Of a stretch of DNA of 64,000 nucleotides, positions 10,816 to 16,896 are shown one piece after another. Position numbers and translations under genes: made by a program. This DNA is from Candidatus Omnitrophota bacterium (GTDB lineage Bacteria > Omnitrophota > Gorgyraeia > Gygaellales > Profunditerraquicolaceae): positions 4,134 to 68,133 of the forward strand of contig JAHKAP010000018.1 of the NCBI GenBank assembly GCA_018825985.1. Reading direction: 5' to 3'. The notes under the pieces are model-generated. The model was not told the origin of the DNA, did no database searches, and worked only from the letters and a program-made list of their open reading frames with translations. Within the stretch, counting starts at the first letter, position 1. Each line of letters starts with the position of its first letter.

Positions 10816-13800
10816 TTAACTTATCGAATCAACGATAACCAGAGCTTCCCTAAGTTCAGCCGAGCTTTCCAACGCGCTCTCTTCTTCCAGCTTACAGATA
10901 TCTATCAGACAGAGTAAGAGATTGTCAACCTGGGCATTGATCTCTTTCTTCTGGCAACAGGCAGCGATCAACTCTTTAAGCCTGTCACCTGAAGGTATAT
11001 TCCCGGCTTTAACCATATTCCTGATCTGCTCTATCTCAGAAGTAATATTGATCTGCCTTAACTGCTCCTGGCTTAAAACGGGCAAGCTGAAATTCAATCC
11101 CTTAAAACTTCCCGTAGGTTGAATGGTCATGGGTAGGGAGCGTAAGTCGATACCGCCGGTAGTTTCAGGAGCTGATTGAACCGGAGAACTACCTGTACCT
11201 TTGCCTTTAAGCTCAACAGATAGAACCTCGCCCTCCGATGACTTACCTAACAAAATCCTAAAACGTCCATCGCGATCTAACTTAGCAACTACCTGTAACA
11301 AACCACCCTTACTTATAGTATCCGGAGATATCTGGGAATTAACCAGCACGAGTAAGTTCGGCAAAATAAAGTATTCCGTAGCATCGCTCATTATATTTTT
11401 GCCAAAGTGTTCATCAAGAAACTTAGCTACTTTATCCCATGTAGCCGTTGATACATCCACCGGCGAAGCGGCGGAAACTATTACCCGCGTGACATCCGGG
11501 GTATTAAGATCAATACCTGTTTCTACATCAATGATGCGGTTAGTGGTCTCTTCTTCTGCGTCCTTACGCACCAGCTTATCCCTGCCCCATACACTTGCAA
11601 TTATACCTATTCCGATTTTCTCAATTCGCTTTTCAATATCTTGAATGTATAGATGCGCGCTGCGCGTAGGCACATCCCTGCCGTCAGCGGCAAAATGGAT
11701 TACAAATTGGTCTTTTCTTAAGTCTAATTTCTTGGCTAATCTCATCAATGCATACATATGATAAAGTGAAGAATGCACTCCGCCTTCAGAAGCAATGGTT
11801 ATATAATGGAACCTCAAATCATTCTCTTTAACCCTTTGCAATTCTTTTACCAAAACCTGAACCTCGGGCATACTTTCATCAAAGATGCCATCGCGAATAC
11901 CGCCCTTAACCAGCCTATCTACATACCACAAGGGTTGTTTATATTCTCTTAACGCAAACATGGCAAAATGGCCAACATCTGTCTGGCCTGCTTGCAAACC
12001 TCTTAAATGGTGCCTGCCTTCTTCCCAAGATAACTCTTTCCTTAACCCAATCACTTCTCCGTGCGCCTGTAGCTGAGTAAAACCACAGGCATTCTTGACC
12101 AACCAGTCATAATTGGGGGTATTGGCGAGCTTGATAGCGTCCCATTCGTAATTCTGGTCGGGATTTATACCCCAGCCATCCAAAACAGCCATCGCGATCC
12201 TGCGTTTACTTCCCTGATAATCATCAGGCAGCAAGCTCGGGTCGGATCCTTCGGGGATATCTTCTCCCAATAGATGTAATAACGTAGCCCCGTTGTTTCT
12301 AATAGTTTGCCCAGACTTTAAGGTTAATTTCCGGGTTCTTAAAGGATCATAAATAATATACGGTACTGGATTTGCAGTATGGAAAGTATCGGATTCCTTA
12401 GGATTTTCTGTCAGCCCAGCTTCTGAAGCGCCATGATCGGCAGTGATAACAAAGATTGGTATCCTTGCTTCAAAACCATTTATCCTCGAATAAAGTATCT
12501 GATTTATTTCTTTTAATCGGATCAAGAAACTATCATAATCAGTTAATAACAAGTTATCGAGAATAATCCGCGCTCTTTCATCTAGTGGATAAGAAGAAAC
12601 CTCTTCTCTTATTTTCTTAATAAACTGTCTTTTTATGCTATCGATCTTTTCTTTTATCCTTCCGATCTGCTGGTCGGTTATTTCATTGGCCTGTTTAGCT
12701 GACTTAAAGTTTCCGGTATGTTTCATCATATCTGAACCAAGTAAGTTCACCAGAATAAAATCTATAGTATCGTCATCCAATCCTCTCAATACCTCATCGG
12801 TACATTCTTTGGTTTTCATCTGGGGCGTATCTGCATAGGCCTTTTTAGATTTCTGCATTTCTATATTAATCCGCTTTTCTCCGGGATAAGGCCCATCTGT
12901 TTTCTTGCCATCTGCATTATTACCAACATGATCCTTCTTTTCGTTCTCAGAAATCTTAAGCACTTTATACATTTTGTTGGACAATATCTCGAAAAAGGTA
13001 TTAGGCACTTTAGCAATTACCTCATCAGACAAAACACTCTTGCCTTGATAATCATTACTAAATTTGATGTATCCCAATAATTTCTTAAAACCCCTGCTCC
13101 ACAGGCCTCTGGCAAAATATCCGGCCCGGTCACCCCTGACGTGCCCGACCATAACTGAATCTTCCGGCGATATAGGATGCAGCGGCTTACCGTTTTCGTC
13201 AGTAACAACAGTAAACTTTAGTACTTGCTCATTTACATCTTCCTCCAACAGGCTTTGCTCCTGTTCAACTGCCTTAGCTAAATCTGAAATTATCGGCGAG
13301 CCGGCAGCGCTTTTACTTTTTTCGCTATCAAGATGCTTCTTTATTTTATCGCGGGCATCAACAACTTTTCCAATTAACCGGTATCTTTTTTCCTTTTCCT
13401 TATTCAGCTCATCTATTTTTATATTCAATATTTCTAAAGTTTCTTCATTAAGATAGAACCTTAATGTAATAGCTGCGTCTATGGCTACTAAATCGTTTGA
13501 ACTATTGAGTCTTTCTATTAACTCTTTTAAATCATTAAATAAACTTTGGCTGGGGAAAACACCATTTTTATATAACACCTCAAGATTCCTCTCCATAGTT
13601 AAAATAATATTGATATTCGGATTTTCTTTTTTAACCTCCGCTTGCAGCGTTGTAAGATAATTATCAGCATCTTTTGTTTCTGTAACAATTGCCGAAACTA
13701 AACTTGTAACCGCTGAGCCGGCTGCGGTAACTGGCAAGCTAGAGGCGGCGTCAAAAAACGCCCTGGCCCGGCTAAAAATGCGGATAGCGGTTAACATCCC

Positions 13801-15669
13801 GGTAGGAGTTGAAATATCCGGCAACACCATAATCGCAGCGTTTGCCAATAATTTAAATTTTGATTCACAGTTTAGTAAATTACCGGCCTTATCTAAAGTC
13901 GTTGCAAAATTAACTAAAAGCGTAAAAGAGCCGGTAGTAGAATCTTCTTCCCCGGGAGATTTAACCGTGTATCCCTTTTCTTTTAAAACATTGCTTAAAA
14001 TAATAACCCTGGGATTATCGGAATAAAGTATGCTCAAAAGCTGATTTTTTTTCAACACCATAAGCGTAGCCAGCCTTTGAGCTGCAATTTCAGCAAGGCC
14101 ATTAAGCGATTCTTCTTTCCCGAAATCTTTGATCAAATAATATCTTCCATCGGCAATTTCACTCAGCAACCTCTTTTCATCATAATAAGAACTTCTTGGA
14201 TGCCTGATTAGGTTTTCCCTAAGCACCCTGTTAACACTATCTGTCGCCGAATATAATAATGATCTACTCGCGGTATCCGACAAAATACCCTTACCGTTTA
14301 AAACTACTCCTTTTAATAGATCAATATATGGTCCTGACCGGGCTTGCCGTTCAATCCTGTTATGGGCCTCCATTAAATCGTATTCTCTGCGATAATCAGG
14401 CATACCTTTAGTCGTTATCGGAGAAGCGGATATTTTTATTCCCCTCAAAGAATCGCCATCTGCTACTATTCCGGTATTAAAGATATTTGGATTAATCGGC
14501 CTGCCAATAAAACTATTCGGGTTATTTATAGGACTTCCGGCTTCTCTGCCCATATTAATCCCCCCGCTAAAATAGCTTCTGATCATCTGGCCGGTAGGGG
14601 TGTAGACAGGTTCCTTGACATTGTATTCGCCTTCCGCAAAGGATTTTTGGTAAAGTTTAAAGTAATCTGTCTTGGACCAGGCATCTTTGGAGATAAGGTT
14701 GGTCAGGTTTTTGGTTTCTATAAGAGCTGTAAAAGCAGGGACAGCCCCCTTTAAAGTACTTTCAGATACCCTGGACGGGGACAGTCCCTTGAATCTTTGT
14801 TTAAACCAGCGAGAGAGAATTAATGAATAGTATACCTGGCGAAAATTAGCGTATCTTCTGGAAGAATTTACTTCTTTGGTCAGCTTAGGAATGATCAATT
14901 CACGGATAAGCCCTGAGGAGTATTCGTTTAAAGCTTTGGAGCGTTCATCTTTAAATTGGTAAACTGAATTATTCGCAATAACAGGATTAGTCGAATTAGC
15001 CAGGTAATCTGATTCAAGCATTACCTTTAAAGTGGCTTTGTAGATATAAGCTGAATCTTCGGCTTCTCTTAAAATGATCTCACCCGGGACTATCCAGGGA
15101 CGAGTCAGGGTAGGTATATTTACGGATTCATAGCCATAAAGCTCTTCGGCTTTCTGGTAAAGCTTAGTCCAGTATTCTTTTCCTTCCGGAGTGTTAGGCG
15201 AGGTAAAAAGAGCAGTATCTTTTTTAAGCTGAAGATCGGTCTCCAGCATGATCTTGCCCACATCGGTCTTTTCCAGATACTGGTCTATGATCTGGTCTTC
15301 AGAATCAGGCCGTAGATTAACCCAAAACATGCTATCTGGAAGGGTTACACCTATTAGGAAATAATTTAAAAGGGTTTGGGTTTTGTCTTTTAAGGCTTCT
15401 TCCGGGATTTCTTCACCTTTACCTATACCTTTGCCTTCAATACCTCTGCTTAATTCATCCCCTTTATCCACCAGGAGCTTAAAACTGTTATTTAGTGAAT
15501 CATAGGAGAAATACCTTAAGTGTATCGGCCGGAACTTATCCTGAACTATATTAGAACCAAACCTGGAAAGATAATTTGCCAGGTTAAGTTCTAAGGCTAC
15601 CTGGGCAAAACTAACCTGCTGGAATAATAAGCCGAAACTTAAGACCAAAGATAAGATTTTACGGGCCAT
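10816..15669 (-). CDS. giant (1617 aa) signal-peptide protein with a duplicated, rearranged iPGM/phosphopentomutase-like alkaline-phosphatase-superfamily module at its C-terminus
   Basis: Likely start at the ATG at 15669 (MARKILSLVLSFGLLFQQVSFAQ, a signal peptide) with AGGAG 8 nt upstream; the track ORF starts 44 codons earlier. The C-terminal ~650 aa carry, in this order, VVTDENG...DSVMVGHVRGDRAG, DFILVNLLGSDMMKHTGN, ITADHG, HTANPVP, then LDGWG, QTDVGH, GGVHSS, AADGRD, IASVWGRD. The N-terminal ~900 aa match nothing I recognise. Confidence 0.7.
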   Translation of the reverse strand: MARKILSLVLSFGLLFQQVSFAQVALELNLANYLSRFGSNIVQDKFRPIHLRYFSYDSLNNSFKLLVDKGDELSRGIEGKGIGKGEEIPEEALKDKTQTLLNYFLIGVTLPDSMFWVNLRPDSEDQIIDQYLEKTDVGKIMLETDLQLKKDTALFTSPNTPEGKEYWTKLYQKAEELYGYESVNIPTLTRPWIVPGEIILREAEDSAYIYKATLKVMLESDYLANSTNPVIANNSVYQFKDERSKALNEYSSGLIRELIIPKLTKEVNSSRRYANFRQVYYSLILSRWFKQRFKGLSPSRVSESTLKGAVPAFTALIETKNLTNLISKDAWSKTDYFKLYQKSFAEGEYNVKEPVYTPTGQMIRSYFSGGINMGREAGSPINNPNSFIGRPINPNIFNTGIVADGDSLRGIKISASPITTKGMPDYRREYDLMEAHNRIERQARSGPYIDLLKGVVLNGKGILSDTASRSLLYSATDSVNRVLRENLIRHPRSSYYDEKRLLSEIADGRYYLIKDFGKEESLNGLAEIAAQRLATLMVLKKNQLLSILYSDNPRVIILSNVLKEKGYTVKSPGEEDSTTGSFTLLVNFATTLDKAGNLLNCESKFKLLANAAIMVLPDISTPTGMLTAIRIFSRARAFFDAASSLPVTAAGSAVTSLVSAIVTETKDADNYLTTLQAEVKKENPNINIILTMERNLEVLYKNGVFPSQSLFNDLKELIERLNSSNDLVAIDAAITLRFYLNEETLEILNIKIDELNKEKEKRYRLIGKVVDARDKIKKHLDSEKSKSAAGSPIISDLAKAVEQEQSLLEEDVNEQVLKFTVVTDENGKPLHPISPEDSVMVGHVRGDRAGYFARGLWSRGFKKLLGYIKFSNDYQGKSVLSDEVIAKVPNTFFEILSNKMYKVLKISENEKKDHVGNNADGKKTDGPYPGEKRINIEMQKSKKAYADTPQMKTKECTDEVLRGLDDDTIDFILVNLLGSDMMKHTGNFKSAKQANEITDQQIGRIKEKIDSIKRQFIKKIREEVSSYPLDERARIILDNLLLTDYDSFLIRLKEINQILYSRINGFEARIPIFVITADHGASEAGLTENPKESDTFHTANPVPYIIYDPLRTRKLTLKSGQTIRNNGATLLHLLGEDIPEGSDPSLLPDDYQGSKRRIAMAVLDGWGINPDQNYEWDAIKLANTPNYDWLVKNACGFTQLQAHGEVIGLRKELSWEEGRHHLRGLQAGQTDVGHFAMFALREYKQPLWYVDRLVKGGIRDGIFDESMPEVQVLVKELQRVKENDLRFHYITIASEGGVHSSLYHMYALMRLAKKLDLRKDQFVIHFAADGRDVPTRSAHLYIQDIEKRIEKIGIGIIASVWGRDKLVRKDAEEETTNRIIDVETGIDLNTPDVTRVIVSAASPVDVSTATWDKVAKFLDEHFGKNIMSDATEYFILPNLLVLVNSQISPDTISKGGLLQVVAKLDRDGRFRILLGKSSEGEVLSVELKGKGTGSSPVQSAPETTGGIDLRSLPMTIQPTGSFKGLNFSLPVLSQEQLRQINITSEIEQIRNMVKAGNIPSGDRLKELIAACCQKKEINAQVDNLLLCLIDICKLEEESALESSAELREALVIVDSIS

Positions 15670-15773
15670 TCTACGTCTCCTATGTTTATCCGCCACAAAG
15701 TCGCCACATCGATAGGCGACCCGCTTTCTGTATGGCGGGCCTAACGGATTATTTGCCTGACAAGATAGAAAGC

Positions 15774-15825
15774 AAATAAAAAACCGCAAAGCCAGACCCA
15801 AATGATTTGTTCCGTGGCAATGCGG
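15774..15825 (-). terminator. intrinsic terminator/attenuator hairpin plus U-run in the intergenic leader between pilD and the giant gene
   Basis: On the minus strand, CCGCAUUGCCAC...GUCUGGCUUUGCGG (imperfect 12-bp stem) is followed by UUUUUUAUUU. It lies 240 nt downstream of the pilD stop and about 105 nt upstream of the giant-gene ATG. Confidence 0.45.
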
Positions 15826-15899
15826 TTTAAATTAAACCGATTTTCGCGCCTTCGCACCTCCATACGAAAACGCTTTTTAATCTTAAAAATCTACATTAA

Positions 15900-15928
15900 A
15901 TATAGCATAAAAACGTCTATTTTTCAAG
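15900..15928 (-). promoter_or_regulatory. candidate sigma-70-type promoter (TTGAAA, 17 nt spacer, TATATT) reading toward the giant gene
   Basis: Seen on the minus strand. It would give a roughly 230-nt leader that contains the terminator at 15774-15825. Confidence 0.3.
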
Positions 15929-16077
15929 CCTTACTCAGAATTTAATATTACTATTTAATTAGGGACTACGGGTAACCAAAGGATGGCGGCGAATGAGAGG
16001 ATCCACTCTGGACTAAAGGAGCCCATGAATCGCTTCCTTTGGGGGAGGACCCGCATGATATAGAATTATAAGTATTA

Positions 16078-16896
16078 CTAGTGAATGAAAAATATGCGGA
16101 CTATTGGGCCTGACCAAAATAGAACAATAACCGCTGCCAGGCTTAAAAACGGGCCATAGGGAATAGTATGTTCTTTTTTGATCAATAAGTTTGCTACTCC
16201 CACGACCAGGCCGAAGAACGGAGCGATAAAAAAGGTCAAAACAGCTCCCTGCCAGCCTAAAAATGCGCCGATCATTGCCAGAAGCTTTACATCCCCTCCA
16301 CCCATAGACTCAGTCTCTCCGTCTATAGGCGGCTTTTTAAGCATTTTAAAATATACCAAGTCGAAGATCTTAGCGGTAAGATAAATTATCCCGCCGCCGA
16401 TGATGATACCTAAAAAAGAATTAACAACCTGGCTTAGGGCTTGATGATTAGAGCTTGGCAAAATAAATCTCGATAAGTTAAGTAAAAAACCGACGATTAT
16501 ACCACCGACCGAAATCTCATCCGGGATGATCCGGTGCTGGATATCTACAAAAGTGGCGATGATTAAACCGCTGATAAAAACAGCATAATATAATAATTCA
16601 AAACCGAACCCATAAATATTAAAAAATAATAAAAAAGCCGCTGCCGTAATCAACTCAATCAGAAAATAACGCGTGGGTATCCTCATCCTGCAGAAGCGAC
16701 ACTTACCCATCAGAAATAAATAACTTAATAAAGGAATGTTATCATGCCAGGGGATAGTCTTTCCGCATGAAGGGCAATAGGAACGTGGTTTTACTACGGA
16801 TTTTCCCAGGGGAAGTCGGAAAATACAGACATTTAGAAAGCTTCCTATCATTGAACCAAAAATAAAAACAAAAACCTTAATTACCGGCAGCGGCAT
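16078..16896 (-). CDS. pilD: prepilin peptidase (A24 family)
   Basis: N-terminal C-x-x-C...C-x-x-C zinc-binding region (CPSCGKTI...CRFCRMRI) with polytopic membrane topology. Confidence 0.85.
   Translation of the reverse strand: MPLPVIKVFVFIFGSMIGSFLNVCIFRLPLGKSVVKPRSYCPSCGKTIPWHDNIPLLSYLFLMGKCRFCRMRIPTRYFLIELITAAAFLLFFNIYGFGFELLYYAVFISGLIIATFVDIQHRIIPDEISVGGIIVGFLLNLSRFILPSSNHQALSQVVNSFLGIIIGGGIIYLTAKIFDLVYFKMLKKPPIDGETESMGGGDVKLLAMIGAFLGWQGAVLTFFIAPFFGLVVGVANLLIKKEHTIPYGPFLSLAAVIVLFWSGPIVRIFFIH

Follow-up and report, generated by a model that had tools for sequence, protein, structure and literature searches.

We analysed a stretch of 64,000 nucleotides (nt) from a Candidatus Omnitrophota bacterium (GenBank assembly GCA_018825985.1, contig JAHKAP010000018.1, positions 4,134 to 68,133), called the window below, and in it the gap that precedes a giant gene on the minus strand. 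The upstream neighbour, the prepilin peptidase gene pilD (Pfam A24), ends at 16078 on the minus strand, the ATG of the giant gene lies at 15669, and the gap between the two is 408 nt long. The giant gene (10816-15669, minus strand) encodes 1617 amino acids (aa), with a signal peptide, an N-terminal domain (N-domain), an iPGM-like cargo and a C-terminal domain. A first reading of the letters alone (below, the sequence-only reading) had suggested in this gap a promoter and a structured leader with an internal terminator. As judged from the comparison of related loci, the stretch before the giant gene is a real regulatory RNA that is conserved; its general kind is known, its class new. In the literature, neither the motif nor the protein family was found described.

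The leader begins with the sigma-70-like promoter that had been proposed (TTGAAA, 17-nt spacer, TATATT), which is present at 15927-15899 on the minus strand, as are all leader parts given below, and has a TG-extended -10 element. The promoter scan placed the -35 hexamer TTGAAA at 15922-15927 and the extended -10 element TGcTATATT at 15899-15907, with the -10 hexamer at 15904-15899; transcription would start at about 15893-15891. Taken alone, such a promoter in the window is at chance level (three sites found against 4.3 expected in shuffles). A near-consensus promoter is, in turn, found at the equivalent position in nearly every related locus, and the leaders of the family keep TGnTAnnnT and, nearly all of them, TTGAAA or TTGACA at -35, often after an A-tract. 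The minimum free energy (MFE) fold of 15893-15660 has -76.8 kcal/mol (z = -3.1) and contains a 12-bp hairpin, P1 (15846-15873), of the form GCGUUUUCGUAU-GGAG-GUGCGAAGGCGC, with GGAGG (15861-15857) in the loop. A variable linker, GAAAAUCGGUUUAAUUU (15829-15845), separates P1 from the terminator hairpin T (15782-15828), composed of the 5' arm AAACCGCAUUGCC, an irregular apex and the 3' arm GGCUUUGCGGUUU, and followed by UUUUUUAUUU. Within the upper terminator lies the conserved box UGCCACGG (15812-15819; consensus UGCCACGR), and on the 3' side of the apical loop a conserved GGGUC (15795-15799). The U-tract after the stem, UUUUUUAUUUGC (15772-15783), is the expected termination site, its first two U (15783-15782) serving also as the last stem pairs of T, and an A-tract lies 5' of the terminator stem. 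The imperfect hairpin with a U-run of the sequence-only reading was thus found at 15828-15772, conserved and covarying, with a folding energy of -20.3 kcal/mol in the window and a mean of about -16 kcal/mol over the leaders; a simple terminator scan overlooked it because the loop exceeds the size limit of the scan. Promoter, P1 and terminator together are predicted to be one leader of about 125 nt.

We compared this region with related loci, for which 80 loci encoding relatives of the giant protein were taken, with 419 relatives confirmed in GTDB representative genomes. In a blastn search with the intergenic region of the window, only the segment from the promoter to the U-run was matched, at 73-77% identity, upstream of homologues in other genomes, and the proteins downstream of these leaders were only 62-69% identical. 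The alignment displays a conserved promoter, a covarying P1 stem with the GGAGG loop, a variable linker and a terminator with AUGCCACGRAA and GGGUCGGC. A covariance model was built on 10 copies and rebuilt on 31 (model R2), and 591 kb of related DNA was searched on both strands. Model R2 gave 58 matches at E ≤ 0.01, of which 55 (E ≤ 1.5e-5) are convincing and three, weak ones, have no GGAGG. All of the matches are on the sense strand and directly 5' of a family gene, with none elsewhere in this DNA. A weak model match at 1258-1355 of the window was rejected as spurious, consisting of a U-run only and having no GGAGG. We also scanned metagenome contigs with a DNA pattern of the terminator core, blind to the protein; it returned 12 loci (three of them contigs already among the genome loci), and a family N-domain gene stood 50-260 nt downstream on the same strand in all 12. 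The same pattern found no copy in viral contigs.

The closest view of what is kept comes from a syntenic orthologue (locus L001), which shares the order of a partial leuA-like open reading frame (ORF), aroE, pilD and the family gene, with 78% protein identity. Identity to L001 is 36% from the pilD stop to the promoter (16077-15942), 86% over promoter and leader (15941-15768), 36% over the spacer behind the terminator (15767-15684) and 75% over the RBS (ribosome-binding site) and the start (15683-15640); the promoter block by itself is 85% identical, against 36% just upstream. In the window, a non-conserved spacer of 102 nt separates the leader end from the ATG, with no promoter-like site called there. 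About 90 nt behind the terminator carry GC-rich inverted repeats, and these hairpins (15684-15767, minus strand) lie outside the conserved element. The sequence-only reading had counted the hairpins as part of a possible regulatory layout. The pairing GUCGCC/GGCGAC (15720-15700) does exist in the sequence, but the spacer is at background identity and the pairing is not repeated. CCGCCA/UGGCGG (15738-15690) exists as well, but it is nested in the MFE fold, makes no pseudoknot and is not conserved, while GCCCGC/GCGGGU is a possible pairing only as an alternative that excludes the outer helix. Since 36% identity is background, the proposed structured RBS region is not under detectable constraint, and the spacer (15767-15684) is repeated neither in the window nor in the related loci. 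Further, the RBS AGGAG (15681-15677; 7 nt before the ATG at 15669-15667) is free of any conserved structure, and its adjoining structure is not conserved. An RNA thermometer is not supported for the same reason, and because AGGAG is unpaired in the MFE fold. Conservation in related genomes, by which the sequence-only reading had proposed to check the structures, thus holds for the promoter, P1 and the terminator but not for the GC-rich hairpins, which by this comparison are lineage-specific filler without detectable constraint. At other loci the spacer is absent, or unrelated palindromic insertions lie between terminator and RBS (L001:2400-2480, L003:2420-2480, L026:2280-2480, L018:2448-2500, L022:2253-2480). 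Several of these insertions are of the GGGGACAC...GUGUCCCC type, which is also seen near other family genes (e.g., L036, L057, L078).

The structure of the leader was assessed on the 55 distinct leaders. In these, 95.5% of the cells in paired columns are paired, compared with 69.8% in column shuffles and 30-51% when the partners were slid, and 20 of the 22 base pairs show compensatory changes. P1, which the sequence-only reading had not noticed, is the sensor-like conserved part of the leader and, with T, one of its two conserved structural helices; all 10 of its pairs have compensatory changes and 96% of its cells are paired. In T the stem pairs with compensatory changes number 10 out of 11, the remaining C-G pair being one that never varies. 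G.U pairs greatly outnumber A.C combinations (59 vs 13 in P1, 37 vs 4 in T), which argues for an RNA structure read from the strand of the gene and not for a palindrome acting in DNA. Across leaders the P1 stem has 10-12 bp and the loop 5-9 nt, and GGAGG forms the loop in 47 of 52 leaders. The UGCCACGR box is present in 45 of the 52, its core GCCACG being invariant in the first alignment.

The position of this box divides the leaders into two variants. In variant A, to which the window belongs, UGCCACGR is inside the upper terminator; in variant B it stands directly 3' of P1 and the terminator stem is a different one, xCCGGAUUGAC...GGGUC...CCGG. An A-rich loop precedes GGGUC in both, and of the 10 nt at the stem end 8-9 are T in every variant A leader, compared with 6-9 in variant B. 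Both variants occur within one genome, e.g., at L001 and L049, both from JBDRLN01. UGCCACGR and GGGUC are kept across genomes, which suggests that the terminator is more than a plain terminator, and a box whose sequence is constant while its structural context shifts may be read by something external. By inspection, no pairing partner in cis was seen for GGAGG, UGCCACGG or GGGUC. A K-turn in the upper terminator was considered and rejected, as the needed G.A/A.G pairs are absent on inspection.

How the gene is reached by RNA polymerase follows from the spacing. Between leader end and ATG lie 56 nt at the median and 12 nt at the least, and in 21 of 54 loci 40 nt or fewer, leaving no room for a second promoter; the gene would thus be transcribed only by read-through of the terminator. 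At most loci UAAAGAGAUUAAAAAAGGAG and the ATG come no more than about 20 nt after the U-tract, and a conserved A-rich RBS region fills the interval. The terminator therefore sits between a conserved promoter and the regulated ORF, which is the layout of an attenuator. The attenuator-like arrangement of the sequence-only reading, a promoter-proximal leader with an internal terminator, is thus borne out by the conservation, the covariation, the exclusive linkage to one family and the lack of room for a second promoter. What the sequence comparison shows is that the element exists, that it is conserved and structured as RNA, that it is linked to this gene family alone, and that transcription of the gene needs read-through.

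Mutually exclusive terminator and antiterminator folds had been envisaged as well, and here the outcome was mixed. In the window, the base of the terminator 5' arm holds UAAACCG (15829-15823), to which CGGUUUA (15839-15833) in the linker can pair, at -6.3 kcal/mol against -2.3 in shuffles (p = 0.018), but the pairing is weak and is missing from many homologous leaders; within variant A, pairing of this type is limited to leaders with CCGC/CCGG stems, which include the window. A variant B subgroup with an AUCCGG tail can form a closing helix AUCCGG/CCGGAU of -10 to -12.5 kcal/mol. In the duplex test, an antiterminator-type helix reached p ≤ 0.05 in 8 of the 24 leaders of variant B and in 9 of the 23 of variant A, the window included, and CCAG-type leaders showed no segment mimicking the 3' arm; in one of these, L088, the linker is only 4 nt. 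Leaders folded without the terminator 3' arm made various local pairings, and adding the terminator 5' arm to the upstream RNA gained about -3 kcal/mol, the same as in shuffles (mean z 0.01). A general antiterminator fold is thus not supported, as its energy gain equals that of shuffles and its support is confined to subgroups. By this folding analysis, the leader family as a whole does not have the properties of a self-contained RNA switch, and the weak or absent competing fold points to an external factor instead.

The reading that we favour, although belief and doubt are about balanced in it, is a default-off attenuator opened by a trans-acting factor which recognises the GGAGG loop and the UGCCACGR box. 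The strong sigma-70 promoter would start the transcript of about 125 nt; P1 would fold first and display its GGAGG loop, to be followed by the long intrinsic terminator with its U-tract. By default, RNA polymerase would stop at about 15778-15772, so that the downstream gene is off or low, and binding of the factor to the P1 loop and UGCCACGR would lead to read-through. In the window the box might then be held single-stranded, with the small hairpin CGGUUUA/UAAACCG, and the terminator be prevented; alternatively, the factor could act on the polymerase and make it ignore the terminator, like the factors of nut or LoaP-type systems. The factor is most likely an RNA-binding protein, since the conserved motifs lie at opposite ends of a 10-12-bp helix and the box is flexible in position. 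We infer that termination is conditional, what the nature of the factor is, and that the factor turns the gene ON. Several points weigh against this proposal. Since the sequences are related and their alignment was fitted to the model, the covariation counts are inflated, though the margin is large. The box lies outside the terminator in variant B, so that simple occlusion is not the general mechanism, and the closing helix of the variant B subgroup (AUCCGG/CCGGAU) would suit a small-molecule aptamer equally well. Some variant A leaders have a family-wide DNA box at the place of the P1 5' arm, and part of the P1 conservation could act at the DNA level. Finally, tblastn with CsrA, Hfq, NusG and LicT gave no match in 0.6 Mb of loci, a sample too small to inform.

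Other explanations account for parts of the same evidence. A promoter-proximal structured RNA followed by a terminator and repeated before many genes is also what a metabolite or ion riboswitch would offer, with P1, the UGCCACGR junction and a closing helix as an aptamer that the ligand stabilises against the terminator (an ON switch); the closing helix would be that between tail and T 5' arm in variant B and a small P2 hairpin in variant A. This idea fits the strict conservation of the unpaired GGAGG, UGCCACGR and GGGUC and the statistical support for an antiterminator-type helix in subgroups; we nevertheless consider it unlikely: P1 is the sole helix besides the terminator, the two conserved motifs stand at its opposite ends, and the box shifts relative to the helices between the variants, which is hard to fit to one binding pocket. 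The closing helix is not universal either (CCAG-type leaders have none, and the linker of L088 leaves 4 nt), the overall antiterminator potential equals that of shuffles, no Rfam family is matched beyond chance even at E ≤ 10, and the heterogeneous cargo of the regulated genes suggests no ligand. The own strong promoter, the canonical terminator with a long U tail, the exposed conserved loop and the many copies per genome would suit instead a small RNA (sRNA) gene of about 115-125 nt running from promoter to terminator, which acts in trans, e.g., as a sponge for a GGA- or Shine-Dalgarno (SD)-binding protein or for 30S subunits, and leaves the downstream gene to constitutive leak-through. The loop AUGGAGGU resembles the CsrA-type GGA-in-loop site of the SELEX (systematic evolution of ligands by exponential enrichment) consensus. 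This is decidedly unlikely, as the unit was never found apart from a family gene; its constant place on the sense strand immediately upstream is the pattern of a cis-element and is not required of an sRNA acting in trans. There is also a single GGA-type loop per RNA, and inspection of the family mRNAs found no target complementary to the conserved motifs. The independent small RNA which the sequence-only reading had placed between the pilD stop and the terminator holds only in so far as the conserved unit spans promoter to terminator; the 150 nt from the pilD stop to the promoter are not conserved. That no regulation is involved, the hairpins stabilising the 5' end of the mRNA or forming a leaky constitutive terminator that sets a low expression level, we hold to be quite improbable. 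Internal mismatches in the terminator (a conserved U.U, a bulge) could indeed cause leakiness and no effector is identified, but conservation of loop and box sequences across genomes would be unexpected for a passive stabiliser, and a near-consensus promoter with an UP-like A-tract in front of a permanent terminator would be wasteful.

Two further explanations assign the conserved motifs to translation and to DNA. As an SD core GGAGG is perfect, and a tiny leader ORF (MPR...) could start at the NUG of NUG-CCA-CGN; a ribosome on this ORF would cover the terminator 5' arm and bring about read-through. In variant B the box lies 9-13 nt after GGAGG and begins with AUG, UUG, GUG or CUG, and several of the ORFs stop 5-6 nt before the terminator; in the window a 23-codon ORF, UUG-CCA-CGG... 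(15820-15749), exists too. Such ribosome-dependent attenuation is nonetheless very improbable, for variant A leaders, that of the window among them, have about 38 nt or more between GGAGG and the NUG and no further SD, the first base may be any nucleotide, and some leaders have UAG, AAG or ACG. A common frame is broken by loops whose lengths do not differ by multiples of three, and the wobble A of CCA is invariable, a sign of constraint on the RNA and not on coding. A leader peptide was therefore rejected for both ORFs of the window (40 aa, 15863-15741; 23 aa, 15820-15749), as no frame is conserved and the peptide is not conserved beyond MPR. Least credible of all is that the P1 region serves as a DNA operator, a roadblock at +10 to +21, for a factor binding the 12-bp palindrome GAAAnCGnTTTC. 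This box is enriched about 30-fold upstream of family genes, and several variant A leaders have it across the tail and the P1 5' arm, the window having a copy with one mismatch, AAAAGCGTTTTC (15877-15866). However, in variant B and in many variant A leaders the P1 stem has an unrelated sequence while pairing and GGAGG are kept, the strong asymmetry of G.U over A.C indicates sense-strand RNA, and the terminator would be left unexplained.

Among the known RNA classes none is an evident match. Rfam 15 gave no match to a known riboswitch class, as the sequence-only reading had expected: at 15400-16300 there were only two chance matches (E 2.7 and 7.5), and in the whole window only three transfer RNAs reach the gathering score. 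T-box features are lacking, with no Rfam match, no UGGN bulge opposite the terminator and a U before GGAGG that is not universal. Nor does P1, with a 10-12-bp stem and a 5-9-nt loop, look like an ANTAR substrate, the second hairpin being absent in many leaders. For leader-peptide attenuation, SD spacing works in variant B only and the start-like codon is any NUG. The leader appears most to resemble factor-dependent antitermination leaders. The lambda N nut sites, the LoaP-controlled dfn/mln leaders of Bacillus and the UpxY capsule leaders of Bacteroides likewise combine a promoter-proximal hairpin with a sequence-specific loop and a short single-stranded box upstream of a terminator, require no stable alternative RNA fold, and serve genes that are long or yield surface or secreted products, in Bacteroides at many paralogous loci. 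In contrast to these systems, the Omnitrophota leader has no sequence similarity to the nut, put or LoaP hairpins, its box can lie inside the terminator itself, and no NusG paralogue or N-like protein was identified among the 0.6 Mb of loci. With the BglG/LicT-RAT, ANTAR, HutP and GlpP systems, where termination is the default and protein binding gives read-through, as is proposed here, the variant A leader shares a conserved RNA site that overlaps or abuts the terminator 5' arm. It differs from BglG/LicT-RAT and ANTAR in having no RAT-like sequence, no pair of hexaloop hairpins and no Rfam match, and the variant B box does not overlap the terminator. Terminator riboswitches are similar as cis leaders with conserved unpaired nucleotides and a terminator before many genes of one regulon, and a closing helix in competition with the terminator is present in some subgroups, but the architecture here is minimal, the box variable in position, the antiterminator not universal and no known class matched. 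Likewise, the short transcript, the GGA/GGAGG loop and the Rho-independent terminator with a long U tail recall 5'-UTR (untranslated region)-derived sRNAs and CsrA/Rsm GGA-loop RNAs, from which the single GGA loop and the strict cis linkage to one family set the leader apart; no CsrA gene was found in the 0.6 Mb searched.

The palindrome also marks a second upstream signal, at paralogues that have no leader. GAAAnCGnTTTC occurs 33 times in 92 loci, with about one occurrence expected, and is concentrated 100-200 nt upstream of family genes (exact copies e.g. at L036:2340-2351, L061:2372-2383 and L004:2352-2363). In these leaderless Type II paralogues the distance from its start to the -35 element downstream is exactly 31-32 nt, which puts the centre at about -61.5, a position that looks activator-like, as in a class-I activator site. 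The box may thus be a second regulatory layer on the leaderless paralogues. P1 is kept as an RNA element in our interpretation because of the unrelated P1 stem sequences elsewhere and the G.U bias. The Type II upstream region, conserved but unrelated to the leader, lies about 150 nt before the gene start (L023, L036, L053, L057, L060-L064, L072-L079) and is made up of the palindrome box, the promoter CCTTGAA...CTTACCTATATnGCATACTT and, in the 5'-UTR, the motif AAGGCTGATAAACC, with no obvious SD and no terminator. In some Type II paralogues (L075, L078) the leader box AUGCCACGGAA is the true start of the gene (AUG CCA CGG AAG, MPRK), and in the window (15749-15820, minus strand) the box opens the 23-codon ORF MPRNKSFGSGFAVFYLLSILSGK, the frame of which is not conserved. 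We treat the identity of box and gene start as a coincidence or relic. The idea that UGCCACGG mimics a translation start was rejected, as the Arg codon of real starts is AGA, AGG or CGU and no nucleotide constraint is shared. At L024, L025 and L052 the family gene is preceded directly by the C-terminal domain of another member, in tandem arrays without a leader of their own.

A separate feature lies between the pilD stop and the leader promoter, where an imperfect hairpin of about 95 nt (15965-16057) folds with -34.5 kcal/mol. A 38-nt part of it is 92% identical to L049:15-52 of another genome, and the syntenic L001 has no aligned counterpart, its pilD-stop-to-promoter stretch being only 36% identical. 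It is probably a small repeat element.

The family to which the leader is linked is large. The first 500 residues of the giant protein have hundreds of homologues, the best of them 62-71% identical and several from a single genome, and those with a source name are nearly all labelled Omnitrophota or Omnitrophica. An exhaustive search gave 7,317 representative clusters at E ≤ 1e-3, in which the conserved domain is always N-terminal and proteins reach 7,391 aa. The alignment describes a signal peptide, an N-domain of about 370 aa (motifs FWVNLRPD, TRPWIVP, SYFSGG), a variable middle and a C-terminal domain of about 110 aa (GGIDFR...QPMGSF...LVIVD); neither domain is covered by Pfam or NCBIfam. 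In precomputed Pfam hits, the variable middle carries PGK, GAPDH, enolase, PGM, HEAT and HD domains and methylases. Cytoplasmic-type glycolytic enzymes behind a signal peptide are an unexplained arrangement. The iPGM-like cargo of the window protein (residues 887-1380; window 11500-13000, minus strand) has its halves swapped, the Metalloenzyme domain (887-1011) standing before iPGM_N (1259-1379), and scores below the NCBIfam equivalog cut-offs. An AlphaFold2 model of the N-domain (window 14470-15669) shows a helical bundle with a beta-sheet (predicted local distance difference test 71, predicted template-modelling (TM) score 0.70). Searched against the PDB, this model (md4934189098b) had no match at E ≤ 0.001, and the top insignificant hits were alpha-pore-forming toxins of the ClyA/NheA/MakA type (TM about 0.1).

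With somewhat more doubt than belief, we propose that the leader represents a new effector-sensing class, be it an orphan riboswitch or the RNA half of an antiterminator protein-RNA pair, which would co-ordinately switch a large secreted modular family. Omnitrophota are uncultured, mostly ultra-small and thought to be host-dependent, and their gene regulation is almost undescribed. With more than 50 examples, two architectural variants and a defined consensus, the leader is a regulatory RNA open to test, and it is coupled to a protein family that ranks among the largest unannotated ones of the phylum. It can enter the RNA family databases and so improve the annotation of Omnitrophota genomes, and identifying its effector would reveal the signal by which these cells deploy the family.

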